Part shown: in pieces, positions 7,232 through 17,881 of the stretch | Numbering within the stretch: the first letter of the stretch is position 1 | Layout: every line of letters begins with the position of its first letter | Assembly: GCA_963663255.1 (NCBI GenBank) | Contig: OY760141.1 | Span: forward strand, 2,765,103 to 2,829,102 | DNA length: 64,000 nucleotides | Direction: 5' to 3' | Source of the DNA: Acidimicrobiales bacterium | GTDB taxonomy: Bacteria; Actinomycetota; Acidimicrobiia; Acidimicrobiales; Bin134 | Program-made: the position numbers and the translations under genes | Notes under the pieces: model-generated | Databases searched by the model: none | Seen by the model: only the letters and a program-made list of their open reading frames with translations | What the model was told of the DNA's origin: nothing

Positions 7232-8503
7232 GTGTATACTGCGGATATGGCCGAATTTCGGCGTTCGCAAGTCGACACCCTCATCAGCCGACTGTCGGAG
7301 CCTCCGCAGCGGCTCATCGCTATCTTCGGCCCACGCCAGACCGGGAAGACCACCGCAGCACGCCAAGCGCTCGCGCTCACCGAACAAGGGCACCGCTACG
7401 AAGCGATCGACGCAGCTGAGCACAGCACAGAGCCATGGCCAGCCTCCTCGGAGACCGACTATGCAACTTTCGGACCTGTTCGCAGAGATGACCGGTGGCT
7501 GGTGGAGGTCTGGGAGCACAGCAGGCACCAGGCCTGGACCTCGCAGCAGGGATTCGTCTTGGTCCTCGACGAGATCCAGAAGATCGATCAGTGGTCGGAA
7601 GTGGTCAAAGGCCTCTGGGACGCCGACCGCGCCAGCGGCTGTCCCCTGCATGTGGTGATTCTCGGCTCGGCGCCGCTCTTGATGCAGGCGGGACTAAGCG
7701 AGAGTCTCGCTGGCCGGTTCGAGCCGATCCATATCACGCACTGGTCCTATCCGGAGATGGCCGACGCCTTCGGCTTCAGCCTGGACGACTATGTGTATTT
7801 CGGGGGATATCCGGGGGCTGTTCCGCTAACCGATGATCTGGAGCGTTGGAGCTCCTATATCCGCAGCGCCCTAGTCGAGCCCAACATCGAACGTGATGTC
7901 CTGTCAATGACCAGAGTCGACAAGCCTGCCCTGCTCAAGCGGCTCTTCGAAGTCGGAGCGCTCTATTCCGGCCAAATCCTGTCGTTCAACAAGATGCTCG
8001 GCCAACTGCAAGACGCAGGCAACACCACAACCTTGACGAGGTATCTCGACTTGCTTTCCCAGGCGGGGCTGCTAATAGGACTCACCAAGCACACCGAGCG
8101 TCCGGTATCAGCCAGGGCCTCGATACCAAAGCTGAATGTGCTCAACACCGCTTTGATGTCGGCCGCCTCCGGCTACTCCCTCGAACAGGCCCGAGACGAC
8201 CGCGCGTTCTGGGGCCGACTGGTCGAGAGCGCAGTTGGGGCGCACCTGGTCAACACAGCCTCGCCGAGCACCACGGTCAAGTACTGGAGAGACGGCAACC
8301 ACGAAGTGGACTTCGTCCTCCAGAGGGGCCCGCACACAGTGGGAGTCGAGGTCAAAAGCGGCCAGGCCCTGACCAGCCACAGGGGTCTCATGGAATTCGA
8401 GCGCCGGTTCCAACCCCGGGCAACCGTCATCGTCGGCGACGCTGGCGTGCCCCTCCCCGAGTTCTTGTCCGAACCCGCCGACTACTGGTTCGAGCCAACA
8501 TGA
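7232..8503 (+). CDS. AAA+ ATPase of the AAA_14 + DUF4143 (COG1373) type with C-terminal PD-(D/E)xK-like motif
   Basis: 423 aa. Walker A FGPRQTGKTT, Walker B VLVLDEIQ, SESLAGRFEPIHITHWSYPEM (family-typical), C-terminal HEVDFVLQ...VGVEVKSG. Alternative start ATG 7247. The stop overlaps the next start (ATGA 8500-8503). Confidence 0.8.
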   Translation: MYTADMAEFRRSQVDTLISRLSEPPQRLIAIFGPRQTGKTTAARQALALTEQGHRYEAIDAAEHSTEPWPASSETDYATFGPVRRDDRWLVEVWEHSRHQAWTSQQGFVLVLDEIQKIDQWSEVVKGLWDADRASGCPLHVVILGSAPLLMQAGLSESLAGRFEPIHITHWSYPEMADAFGFSLDDYVYFGGYPGAVPLTDDLERWSSYIRSALVEPNIERDVLSMTRVDKPALLKRLFEVGALYSGQILSFNKMLGQLQDAGNTTTLTRYLDLLSQAGLLIGLTKHTERPVSARASIPKLNVLNTALMSAASGYSLEQARDDRAFWGRLVESAVGAHLVNTASPSTTVKYWRDGNHEVDFVLQRGPHTVGVEVKSGQALTSHRGLMEFERRFQPRATVIVGDAGVPLPEFLSEPADYWFEPT

Positions 8504-15700: not shown

Positions 15701-17881
15701 CACGAACAAGAGGTCATCAGGCTCAACAAGGGCCTCACCGTGTTCCGCTCAGCGATGACCATCCACTTGTCTCCCGAGCGGCGCGGCTATTGGGGGTCAG
15801 ATTTCGAGTCCTTGCAGATCCACTATGACGAAACGGTCCGCCAAATCCATGTGATGGCCGAGTACGCCCAGCGGGGGCTCGCCAACATGGCGGAGGCCCT
15901 GCGCCTTGCTATCGACTACTTCGCTCTGGGAGAAGCCGAGTTCTTGCAACGCTGGCTGCCTGATCGCAGCCCGGAGCTCTCGCGGCAGACCACGCCGGAG
16001 TCGTGGCGCAACATCGTGGAAGGCCTGAAGAACCCCTCCCAGCGCCAACTCGTGGCCGACACCCGCGAGAACACCAACGTGCTGGTGTTGGCCGGCCCCG
16101 GGTCGGGCAAGACCAGAGTGCTGGTGCATCGCATCGCCTACCTGATAAGAGTCAGGCGCGAGGACCCTCGGGGCATCCTCGCCCTCGCCTACAACCGGCA
16201 TGCCGCAGTCGAGATCCGACGCCGACTGGCCGAGCTGGTGGGCGCCGACTCGCGAGGAGTGCTGGTGCTCACCTGCCACGCCATGGCAATGCGCCTCGTG
16301 GGCGCCAGCTTCTCAGAGCGCGCCGATCGCCCCGAAAGCGAGCACTTCCAAGAAGTCCTCAAGCAGGCGACCGCCTTGCTGCGGGGCGATGGGCTGGAAC
16401 AGGAGGAAGCCGAGGAAACACGGACACGACTGCTGGCGGGATTCCGGTGGATTCTGGTGGACGAGTACCAAGACGTCGGCCAAGACGAATACGACCTCAT
16501 CTCCGCGTTGGCCGGCTGGACCCTGTCAGACGACGACTCCAAGCTCACTCTGTTCGCGGTAGGCGACGACGACCAGAACATCTACTCGTTCAAGGGATCG
16601 TCGGTGAAGTTCATACGCAGCTTCGAGCAGGACTACAAGGCCAAGCCCGAATTCCTTGTCGACAACTATCGATCAACCCGACACATCATTCGGGCCGCCA
16701 ACGCCGTGATCGAGCCAGCACAAGACCGGATGAAGGCAGACCACAAGATCCAAATCAACAAAGGACGTGCCAAGGACCCCGCGGGAGGTGTGTGGGCCAA
16801 GCGAGACCCACTAGGCCGAGGGAAAATCCAGGTCTTGCCCGCAGGCGGAAATGCGATCTCTCAGGCTCAAGCAGCAATCGCCGAGCTCAAGCGTCTGAGC
16901 GGGCTCGCTTCGGACTGGGACTGGTCGAGCTGCGCCTTGATCGCCAAGGAATGGAAATACCTAGAGCCGGTTCGCAGCATCTGCGAACTCGAGGGCATCC
17001 CAGTGCAAATGGCGAATGAAGACCTCACCAGCATCTGGCACCTACGCGAGACGCAGTCACTGATCGGTTGGCTCCGCAACCGCGACTACCGCCTGATCCG
17101 AAACGCCGACGTGCGCGAACGGCTGACCAGCCAGCCCCAAAGCCCCTGGATCGAACTCCTGCAAGAGGCCATCGAGGCCCACGAGGTTGAGGCGGGCATG
17201 GCCGAGATTCCTGTGGACACCTTCATCGAATGGCTAGCGGAGTGGGGACGAGAAGCGCGCAAGCGCCAACGAGGGTTGTTGCTAACGACCGCCCACCGTG
17301 CCAAAGGCTTGGAGTTCGACCATGTGATCGTGCTCGACGGCGGCTGGGACCGCGTAGGGCGAGAGGAAGACCCCGACGCGTCGCGCCGCCTGTACTACGT
17401 CTCCATGACCCGCGCCCGCCAAACTCTTGCCCTTGGACGTCTCAGCGAACCAAACCCAATTCAAACGGCGCTGCGAAAAAGCTCGGCCGTCGCTTGGCGA
17501 AAGCCCTTCGACCTCCCACCGCCAGCACCAGAGTTGCGGCGGCACTACCGACAACTCAGCCTAACCGACGTCTACCTGAGCTTCGCCGGGCGAATGCCAT
17601 CCACCAACCGCGTGCACGCAGCCATCGCAGCCTTGTCGCCAAACGATCCGCTACAAGTAAAACAGCGGAACGGCCAATGGGAGCTACTCGACCATTCGGG
17701 CGTAGTAGTAGGAAGGCTGTCCCGAAACTTCAAGCCCCCCGAAGGGTTGGTCTGCACGCATGCAAGCGTCTTGGCCATCGCAACTTGGGCCCGCCACCAC
17801 TCAGACCCCGAGTACCAAGAGCAACTCCAACGCGACACATGGGAAGTCGTCGTGCCCGAACTCATCTTCGAGCCATCCTGA
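12749..17881 (+). CDS. Triple-fusion DEDD 3'-5' exonuclease / RecQ-family SF2 helicase / UvrD-family SF1 helicase
   Basis: 1710 aa.
Exonuclease: VSVDLEV (D25/E27), GHNFIEFDMRHL (D85), VVDTLWL, NDPEQDAKIALEVF.
Cys cluster: C268-x4-C273-x2-C276-x3-H280.
RecQ: LPTGTGKSLCYQ (aa 325-336), VLDEAHCLSKWGHDFRPDY, CLTATA, ATNAFGMGIDKPDVRLVIH, YLQEAGRAGRD.
UvrD: VLAGPGSGKT (aa 1113-1122), ILVDEYQD (aa 1235-1242), FAVGDDDQNIYSFKG, VDNYRST, TTAHRAKGLEFDHVIVL, YVSMTRAR.
A ~145-aa tail after UvrD motif VI is unassigned. Confidence 0.8.
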   Translation: MPDAAPPGGVRDQRLLEGLSRCVSVDLEVSKVTERIHSFAGVRLDTEESFVYPSAGLDRPQALAELDALADGTDFLVGHNFIEFDMRHLQAANPGLRLLEMPVVDTLWLNPLAFPRNPYHHLVKHYQEGQLITGRKNDPEQDAKIALEVFADQQKSLLEAPSDLLVAWHWLTGGQHGSGFDLVFRCLRGSPRPSDVEACEAIYARVDGICCRTHARQAADSAGEHGWSLAYALAWLWVSGGNSVMPPWVRHQFPDAGKLVRRLRDSRCEDRGCPWCQERHNARKELKRLFGFDEFRPEPAGEDGRPLQQAIVEAAMGGDHVLGILPTGTGKSLCYQIPALSRYDKTGAVTVVISPLVALMADQVTGLEAHGITSCVTINGLLSMPERSEALEKLRLGDAAIVLVSPEQLRSVSFRRSLDQREIGSWVLDEAHCLSKWGHDFRPDYRYVGRYIRERAEGGVVPPVMCLTATAKPGVKEEIVEYFAEQLGVEMRVFDGGSERANLEFVVVETTTSKKYSDIYEILSNHLPPDGNGGAIVYCATQRRTEEIANFLRELGFSADRFHAGLQPEDKKTVQRRFIEGELRAIAATNAFGMGIDKPDVRLVIHADIPSSLENYLQEAGRAGRDQKQAHCVLLFTRNDVERQFGMSARSRLTRREINGVLKALRRLSRRNNNDEVVATMGEILVNDEDTDFRRDSATDDTRGRTALAWLEEAELLSREENRVNIFPSSLRVSSVEEAKEKLESKGLDELARGRLLAVVEALIGADPDEGISTDMLMATAGLSSDQVRGALYDLERCGIASNDTALTAFVHLGVANSSKRRLVEAAGAEEELLSLMREMAPDMGIGDEAPLNLRVACQRIKDAGHNHVRPEYMARLLQGIAGDGRGEGIGGGSITVRKLDAESVRITLKREWHSVVGMAQRRRAGAARLLDHLLSCAPKGKRGTDLLAETTLGKLTEAVEGDLTLAGEAKDLRRLVDRSLVWLHEQEVIRLNKGLTVFRSAMTIHLSPERRGYWGSDFESLQIHYDETVRQIHVMAEYAQRGLANMAEALRLAIDYFALGEAEFLQRWLPDRSPELSRQTTPESWRNIVEGLKNPSQRQLVADTRENTNVLVLAGPGSGKTRVLVHRIAYLIRVRREDPRGILALAYNRHAAVEIRRRLAELVGADSRGVLVLTCHAMAMRLVGASFSERADRPESEHFQEVLKQATALLRGDGLEQEEAEETRTRLLAGFRWILVDEYQDVGQDEYDLISALAGWTLSDDDSKLTLFAVGDDDQNIYSFKGSSVKFIRSFEQDYKAKPEFLVDNYRSTRHIIRAANAVIEPAQDRMKADHKIQINKGRAKDPAGGVWAKRDPLGRGKIQVLPAGGNAISQAQAAIAELKRLSGLASDWDWSSCALIAKEWKYLEPVRSICELEGIPVQMANEDLTSIWHLRETQSLIGWLRNRDYRLIRNADVRERLTSQPQSPWIELLQEAIEAHEVEAGMAEIPVDTFIEWLAEWGREARKRQRGLLLTTAHRAKGLEFDHVIVLDGGWDRVGREEDPDASRRLYYVSMTRARQTLALGRLSEPNPIQTALRKSSAVAWRKPFDLPPPAPELRRHYRQLSLTDVYLSFAGRMPSTNRVHAAIAALSPNDPLQVKQRNGQWELLDHSGVVVGRLSRNFKPPEGLVCTHASVLAIATWARHHSDPEYQEQLQRDTWEVVVPELIFEPS

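Follow-up and report, generated by a model that had tools for sequence, protein, structure and literature searches.

A stretch of 64,000 nucleotides (nt) from an Acidimicrobiales bacterium (contig OY760141.1, hereafter the window) carries, directly downstream of its transfer-messenger RNA (tmRNA) gene, three tightly packed genes on one strand, numbered 1 to 3 in the order listed below. Do these genes form a single anti-phage system, and is that system new? A preliminary description of the locus had answered yes to both, presenting the trio as a candidate undescribed system that matches none of the defense systems it could name. Its anatomy stood up well. The three open reading frames (ORFs) lie exactly where it placed them, with an ATGA overlap (8500–8503) joining genes 1 and 2 and a gap of 82 nt before the start of gene 3. 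All four P-loop motors are present, the cassette is built of defense-type proteins, and the trio as a system is unlike Gabija, Hachiman, Druantia, Zorya, DISARM or Dpd.

7232–8503, + strand: gene 1, AAA+ ATPase with a DUF4143 domain of PD-(D/E)xK type, PADLOC candidate PDC-S01 (Pfam, PADLOC)
8500–12666, + strand: gene 2, Erebus/EruA-type (Avs10) STAND NTPase (NCBIfam NF058535, motifs, fold)
12749–17881, + strand: gene 3, stand-alone fusion of 1710 amino acids (aa) (Pfam, NCBIfam, AF2/Foldseek)

The proposal of one unmatched system fared differently. Gene 2 falls into the Erebus/Hypnos/bNACHT64 (Avs10) family, gene 1 corresponds to PDC-S01, and the trio comes apart when other genomes are considered: gene 3 occurs alone in 27 genomes, and at least 18 other loci (14 metagenome contigs and four genome or metagenome loci) have the gene 1–gene 2 pair but no full-length gene 3. 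Our final collection comprised 217 loci, 3.1 Mb in total. All three genes were seen together only in L081, L082 and L087–L089, which have the same island bounded by attachment (att) repeats at the same tmRNA gene, followed by the core genes HhH-GPD, CorC, YbeY and PhoH. These loci therefore reflect shared descent and not independent co-occurrence, and the proposal, which had looked to co-occurrence outside this genome for support, is in substance undone by finding it only in close relatives with the same island. We consider it probable that the island carries two independent modules directed against phages or other mobile genetic elements, module A being genes 1 and 2, an Erebus/Avs10-type operon, and module B being gene 3.

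The coupled pair of genes 1 and 2

Genes 1 and 2 form a conserved, translationally coupled pair. A metagenome scan returned 42 loci, 14 of which had a gene 1 homologue (47–69% identity) immediately upstream of a gene 2 homologue (30–44%) on the same strand; no full-length gene 3 was found in those 14 paired contigs. The same arrangement occurs in L084 and L085/L086, whose gene 2 is 47–49% identical to that of the window: a 418-aa AAA_14/DUF4143 gene overlaps the start of gene 2 by 4 nt, gene 3 is absent and the genomic contexts are different. When two gene 1 homologues were picked regardless of gene 2, one (L215) was followed by a gene 2 homologue and the other (L214) by a truncated, decayed remnant of gene 2. 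The 4-nt overlap is kept in L081, L082, L084, L085, L087 and L215, all six loci that combine gene calls with an intact pair, across widely varying context and G+C. Within the paired clade, gene 2 proteins are aligned from residue 1–5, whereas about 20 more distant relatives (28–33% identity), which are encoded without gene 1, align only from about residue 24–38. Plasmid-borne gene 2 homologues of Proteobacteria are likewise found without gene 1 and adjoin Ppl, Abi, SIR2 and integrase genes. We found no description in the literature of a PDC-S01/Erebus pairing with a palindrome, the original Erebus paper lying outside that search.

EruA is the protein of the Erebus system, and the Erebus/Hypnos (HyoA)/bNACHT64 family is said to go back to van den Berg et al. 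in 2024 and Kibby et al. in 2023. The 1388-aa product of gene 2 is predicted to consist of a P-loop NTPase (residues ~35–300), a hypervariable helical sensor (~500–1200) and a C-terminal PD-(D/E)xK nuclease (D1291, E1304, K1306). NCBIfam model NF058535, "NACHT domain-containing antiphage protein EruA", matched it with 899.7 bits (E = 4.6e-270), residues 28–1386 being collinear in a single stretch with model positions 18–1318 of 1318. The same model scored 775–859 bits in the window's relatives, 1026 bits in the gene 1-linked homologue of L096 and 1189.6 bits in a Bradyrhizobium plasmid gene. A precomputed Pfam annotation linked to gene 2 is DUF8371; against the local Pfam library gene 2 gave no match, with only faint NACHT and nSTAND signals and nothing over the C terminus. 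It also had no match among Protein Data Bank (PDB) sequences, and no relatives of it were found on IMG/VR contigs.

Motifs and fold agree with the profile. The Walker A (GDAGSGKTT, residues 41–48) is accompanied by a Walker B (ILFIDGLDE), and G41, G44, G46, K47, D89, D92 and E93 are invariant over 12 homologues. The D1291/E1304/K1306 triad persists unchanged in proteobacterial homologues, even at 25% identity. An AlphaFold2 (AF2) model of residues 1145–1388 (mean predicted local distance difference test, pLDDT, 76.9) retrieved the PD-(D/E)xK nucleases R.BspD6I, Hjc, SfsA, LmuA, Can2 and RecU in Foldseek, with weak E-values of 0.01–0.1 and probabilities of at most 0.97, which supports the predicted C-terminal nuclease as a fold. 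Judged by these features, gene 2 is assigned as a divergent member of the described and validated Erebus/Hypnos/bNACHT64 family. It shares with Erebus/Avs10 proteins full-length collinearity with the EruA profile, the N-terminal P-loop STAND/NACHT NTPase, the large helical sensor, a C-terminal triad kept in proteobacterial homologues, and mobile or defense contexts. It differs from them in scoring below the equivalog cutoff, in being only 25–32% identical to plasmid-borne proteobacterial members and in its translational coupling to an upstream PDC-S01-type gene. Erebus, Hypnos and bNACHT64 have been grouped as Avs10, which is reported to recognize the HK97 fold of the phage major capsid protein and to respond by killing the cell, an outcome abolished by effector mutations (preprint, Lee et al., 2026; PMC12803255).

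Gene 2 is also the fast-changing part of the locus. Its identity to syntenic relatives is only 57–69%, compared with 84–95% for the flanking core genes, and the divergence is mosaic: against L081, L082 and L087, residues 500–1200 are 31–60% identical, whereas segments 301–400 and 1301–1388 reach 88–94%. This suggests recombination or allelic exchange, or else diversifying selection on an immune sensor. The mosaic agrees with a dip in G+C, which is 0.57–0.59 over gene 2 and 0.63–0.67 in the flanks.

The gene 1 ORF as called encodes 423 aa. Homologues at 67–91% identity are 418 aa long, and the true start is likely ATG 7247, which would give the same length. The protein has the Pfam domains AAA_14 and DUF4143, the Walker A motif GPRQTGKTT and an EVDFV...VEVK tail, bearing out the AAA_14+DUF4143 architecture and D...E-x-K tail of the preliminary description. 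PADLOC model PDLC04791 (PDC-S01) matched residues 9–420 on positions 2–394 of 395 (528.6 bits, 1.9e-159), so that gene 1 shows both the full-length hidden Markov model match and the two-domain architecture by which PDC-S01 is recognized. In NCBIfam release 20 it matched no antiphage family, and its matches to PDB sequences were P-loop-level RecA matches only. The earlier count of up to three nuclease modules held in part: those of genes 2 and 3 are supported as folds by AF2/Foldseek and invariant residues, and the nuclease-type domain of gene 1 is a putative one, assigned from its motif and published classification. PDC-S01 has been described as an ATPase fused to a PD-(D/E)xK domain, a single-gene candidate from "guilt by embedding" that ranked fourth among the most common defenses across prokaryotes, with validation pending for most such candidates (PMC12988326). 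While PDC-S01 is catalogued as a single gene, here and at about 20 other loci it opens a fixed Erebus-type pair, and gene 1 of the pair is preceded by a conserved palindrome. Gene 1 is 79–92% identical to its syntenic relatives.

7190–7225, no strand: perfect palindrome of 36 nt, ATTACGCTATTGAGTAA-TT-TTACTCAATAGCGTAAT, between the tmRNA gene and gene 1

The window has a single copy of the palindrome core TGAGTA-N3-5-TACTCA, where 0.00 are expected. Among 134 loci searched, 13 others have it, in each case directly in front of a gene 1 homologue, and no copy lies at any other place in the 134. Its outer arms covary (GCTAT/ATAGC, ATCAT/ATGAT, TATTC/GAATA), and degenerate palindromes precede most other gene 1 homologues, in hosts that differ strongly in G+C; L084 and L215 showed none. 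On Coxiella and Thermus plasmids, where gene 1-like genes stand alone, an AGTA...TACT inverted repeat precedes the start codon. The palindrome matches no family in Rfam. Its role is probably that of an operator overlapping the promoter or, alternatively, of a 5' hairpin, and as an operator we infer that it would most simply be bound by gene 1's own product. By eye, the window palindrome overlaps a possible TTGAGT-16 nt-CGTAAT promoter, and ATG 7247 follows 6 nt after a TATACT box, a spacing compatible with a leaderless transcript; a consensus scan found no sigma-70-type promoter in the island.

The predicted helicase–exonuclease fusion encoded by gene 3

Gene 3 joins two helicase motors and a predicted exonuclease in one chain, with the following layout.

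Residues ~20–160: DnaQ-like DEDD exonuclease (predicted), followed by a helical region with a Cys cluster to ~290
Residues ~300–650: RecQ-family superfamily 2 helicase, followed by residues 650–1095 without assignment
Residues 1095–1562: UvrD-type superfamily 1 helicase, followed by a C-terminal domain (1563–1710) without assignment

DEAD and Helicase_C domains cover residues 305–626. This region exceeded the cutoff of the recQ_fam model TIGR00614 (311 bits against 219.8) but remained below that of the housekeeping RecQ equivalog TIGR01389 (336.5 bits against 640.2), and gene 3 therefore has a RecQ-family core without being the housekeeping RecQ. Residues 1095–1562 matched Pfam UvrD-helicase, AAA_19 and UvrD_C, and scored 106–168 bits against the UvrD, PcrA and Rep equivalogs, whose cutoffs are 911–1168. 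Pfam found nothing in residues 1–290, 650–1095 and 1560–1710, and thus did not detect the DEDD exonuclease. Residues D26, E28, H79, N80, D85 and D142 are nevertheless invariant in 15 homologues down to 31% identity, with Asn137 at the position of the DEDDh His. An AF2 model of residues 1–290 (pLDDT 81.5) had its best Foldseek matches in S. aureus DinG, the TREX1 homologue Plex9.1, PolB exonuclease domains, EXD2 and REXO2, with modest E-values (2e-3 to 0.4) and probabilities of 0.99–1.0. An N-terminal DnaQ-like exonuclease is thus supported as a fold. Between the exonuclease and RecQ domains lies an invariant C268-x4-C273-x2-C276-x3-H280 cluster (window positions 13550–13590), which may form a zinc finger before the helicase core; in canonical RecQ the zinc-binding motif comes after the core. 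A TAGCAT box 7 nt before GTG 12749 (12736–12751) is a possible leaderless promoter of gene 3, and in relatives the annotated start of gene 3 is a TTG lying 15 codons further on (1695 aa).

No database record has the exact gene 3 sequence. PADLOC returned domain-level matches only (DpdF, PsyrT, GajB); neither a full-length model in PADLOC 2.0 nor an antiphage family in NCBIfam release 20 was found, and our literature search found no description of a RecQ–UvrD–exonuclease fusion. We considered three named systems and rejected each. Gabija was set aside since the GajB match is domain-level, covering the UvrD part (180.7 bits), and the gene for the OLD-family nuclease GajA is absent from the island. 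Dpd failed on score (194.3 bits against an NCBIfam DpdF cutoff of 550), the PADLOC DpdF match spanning only the RecQ core (278–668) with no dpd neighbors, and PsyrTA on a domain-level match with its partner genes absent. To our knowledge, no known system or enzyme combines an exonuclease, a RecQ and a UvrD helicase in one chain of 1700 aa. The nearest parallels are partial. Eukaryotic WRN places a DEDD exonuclease N-terminal to a RecQ core, and DinG of S. aureus and B. subtilis also joins a DEDD exonuclease and a helicase in one chain, but each has one helicase, whereas gene 3 adds a second motor. With helicase–nuclease defenses it shares a UvrD part that resembles GajB at the domain level, and it differs from them in lacking GajA, HamA or any other partner; we take Nhi, Hna and Hachiman to be comparable, and AddAB/RecBCD belong to the same broad group of helicase–nuclease enzymes.

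Full-length homologues are abundant and well conserved: Acidimicrobiia, Chloroflexi and Ca. Poriferisocius have them at 66–94% identity, under no annotation other than "RecQ family helicase". When one genome per species was scanned, 27 loci emerged with full-length homologues at 38–74% identity, from Alpha- and Gammaproteobacteria, Acidobacteriota, Acidimicrobiia, Dehalococcoidia, Desulfobacterota and Verrucomicrobia. In these 27 loci tblastn found no gene 2, and only two weak, non-adjacent matches to gene 1. We also looked for another conserved partner by all-against-all clustering of flanking ORFs, and any one neighbor was common to at most 3 of the 27 loci. The N-terminal domain family comprises 1,474 clusters at 50% identity (994 at E <= 1e-10), and complete members are about 1,700–1,890 aa long.

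In L083, gene 3 (79% identity) directly follows the tmRNA gene without genes 1 and 2 and adjoins an N6 methylase of a restriction–modification (RM) system and GmrSD. At positions 9883–9915 of that locus, the tmRNA 3' end CCCTCCAGCTCCACCA directly adjoins a nearly identical copy in tandem, ACCTCCAGCTCCACCA, with gene 3 next; the tandem copy may be an att scar. Across the 84 nearest ORFs of 22 gene 3 loci, many were housekeeping genes, and strong PADLOC matches included PDC-S37, HmaC, Hhe, ZorA/ZorB, type IV and type I restriction enzymes, PDC-M21A/B, PDC-S01 and mad3; integrases and transposases were also present. The most frequent neighbor family was the amidases (Pfam PF01425, best E = 1e-92), with 5 of the 84 (L002, L007, L018 and others). 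IMG/VR holds five full-length copies of gene 3, beside Mu-like transposition genes, a terminase, ParB-methyltransferases and host genes. This pattern of contexts fits a mobile, stand-alone gene of defense type.

The island at the tmRNA gene

The three genes are the only cargo of a 10.86-kb genomic island that was horizontally acquired at the 3' end of the tmRNA gene and carries no integrase. Its borders are as follows.

6799–7185, + strand: tmRNA gene (ssrA), integration target of the island (ARAGORN, tag peptide GNDRELLAA; Rfam RF00023)
7165–7185, + strand: attL, the last 21 nt of the tmRNA gene, TTCGATTCCCCCCAGCTCCAC, a perfect direct repeat with 18023–18043
18023–18043, + strand: attR, where the 21-nt tmRNA 3' end recurs and the island ends on the right (repeat search)

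The tmRNA scored 65.8 bits against RF00023 (gathering score 47). The perfect 21-nt repeat strengthens the earlier claim that the cassette was acquired horizontally in a tmRNA island, and the same repeat pair, with 0–2 mismatches, encloses the same three genes in the related contigs L081, L082 and L087. The right-hand copy lies 142 nt past the gene 3 stop, and core genes (SDR, HhH-GPD, CorC, YbeY, PhoH) begin at 18053, to its right. Between the repeats, the ORF list and the Pfam, PADLOC and NCBIfam scans revealed no integrase or other mobility gene and no gene beyond the three; a methyltransferase and a toxin–antitoxin pair are likewise absent from the island, as first reported. Because mobility genes are missing, the island is probably an immobilized remnant. 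It resembles other tmRNA (ssrA) islands in its insertion at the tmRNA 3' end, the 21-nt duplication, the lower G+C and the defense-type cargo, and it differs from them in having no mobility gene and in being vertically inherited among relatives; the repeat expected at the far border is there and the integrase is not.

On the other side of the tmRNA gene, the window has a gene for the cobalt-transporter subunit CbtA (5937–6755) where L081, L082 and L087 have smpB, so that synteny is broken on the 5' side of the tmRNA gene. No homologue of smpB, era or recO was found anywhere within the 64-kb window.

One system or two modules

In module A, the variable helical sensor of gene 2 would bind a conserved phage protein, by Avs10 precedent the HK97-fold major capsid protein. 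Binding would lead to NTP-dependent oligomerization of gene 2, and the oligomer would switch on the C-terminal PD-(D/E)xK domain, resulting in DNA cutting and abortive infection. Gene 1, which is much more conserved and brings the promoter region, might act as an autoregulator through the palindrome, as a co-effector (a second ATP-dependent nuclease), or as both. In module B, gene 3 would load on DNA ends or forks, unwind them with its two motors of 3'-5' type and degrade the 3' strand, and in this way may restrict linear or replicating foreign or aberrant DNA, like single-polypeptide helicase–nuclease defenses. Module B moves between phyla by itself.

That genes 1 to 3 instead make up one novel three-component system, with a sensor NTPase, an ATPase–nuclease and a helicase–exonuclease working only as a trio, seems to us very improbable. 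Tight packing on one strand inside one att-bounded island would suit such a system, as would the conservation of the trio in L081, L082 and L087–L089, but these loci are syntenic close relatives and so count as a single event, while gene 3 has neither gene 1 nor gene 2 as a neighbor in the 27 loci and L083 and at least 18 loci have the pair but not a full-length gene 3. A further point in favor of the trio is found on an unrelated contig, L096, where an ORF of 358 aa (956–2053), 45% identical to gene 3 residues 1371–1709, precedes a gene 1–gene 2 pair by 1.7 kb; gene 3 may have decayed there, or its C-terminal module may exist in a free-standing form.

Two further readings accept the separation of the modules and question their content. 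Gene 3 could be a horizontally spread enzyme of DNA repair or replication restart, a bacterial WRN-like exonuclease–RecQ with an added UvrD motor, and a chance passenger of the island. Its domains are those of the repair helicases RecQ, WRN and UvrD and of the exonuclease–helicase DinG, it is strongly conserved at full length across phyla (66–79% between Acidimicrobiia and Chloroflexi), housekeeping genes are frequent among its neighbors, and it diverges from its syntenic relatives (89–93% identity) like the flanking core genes. We nonetheless think this unlikely: the gene is patchily distributed without a conserved context, is enclosed by att repeats at a tmRNA hotspot, falls far short of the equivalog cutoffs for RecQ, UvrD, PcrA and Rep, and recurs beside Zorya, RM, Hma, Hhe, GmrSD, integrases and transposases as well as on IMG/VR contigs. 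Similarly, genes 1 and 2 could be separate single-gene systems, PDC-S01 and Erebus, that travel together, gene 1 adding nothing to the function of gene 2. We find this doubtful on the strength of the fixed order and strand, the recurrence of the pair in about 20 loci, the start/stop overlap in six intact pairs of such different context and G+C, the N-terminal extent that sets paired gene 2 proteins apart and the persistence of gene 1 beside a decayed gene 2 in L214. What speaks for it is that each family is also found alone (gene 1 on Coxiella and Thermus plasmids, gene 2 on proteobacterial plasmids), that gene 2 has its own NTPase, sensor and nuclease, and that the palindrome would belong to gene 1 alone, since stand-alone gene 1-like genes carry their own inverted repeat.

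Several observations also weigh against the two-module explanation that we favor. A bona fide EruA is encoded without gene 1 in L092 (1189.6 bits) and gene 1-like proteins (~47% identity) stand alone on Coxiella and Thermus plasmids; both families are found alone, and pairing is therefore not obligatory for either. Gene 2 falls short of the NF058535 equivalog cutoff (1000 bits), PDC-S01 is an unvalidated candidate (PMC12988326), and capsid sensing by Avs10 comes from other members of the family, the sensor being the least conserved part of gene 2. The evidence on all three proteins comes from their sequences and models. The excess of defense genes near gene 3 is an apparent one, counted in the gene 3 loci only, and the core-gene-like divergence of gene 3 in this lineage would also suit a domesticated repair enzyme. 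Finally, co-transcription and some functional interplay of the modules may occur in this lineage, because the island is one att-bounded unit with no internal att remnant (at <=3 mismatches) and no terminator-like site on the + strand between genes 2 and 3.

A bolder claim on the two-module explanation can be made only tentatively, and its two parts are independent of each other: gene 3 would be the first member of a new class of anti-phage or anti-plasmid systems that act alone, a bacterial "WRN plus UvrD" that spreads by itself between phyla into defense islands, tmRNA hotspots and prophage edges, and genes 1 and 2 would separately form an obligate two-component variant of Erebus. If true, the latter would be the first functional handle on PDC-S01.

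As far as we found, the gene 2 family is already described and validated and gene 1 is a catalogued candidate, so that what is new at this locus is the fixed operon with its palindrome and the gene 3 fusion. An apparent three-gene system thus resolves into parts that can each be tested alone. The fixed PDC-S01 operon with an Erebus/Avs10 sensor and a palindrome offers a concrete setting for finding the function of PDC-S01. The island is also a clean natural case of an immune sensor that diversifies far faster (57–69% identity) than its neighbors (84–95%). The gene 3 family, for its part, is sizeable (about 1,000 clusters at 50% identity), conserved and cross-phylum, and whether it serves defense or repair, a DNA motor with three activities in one chain is of enzymological interest.

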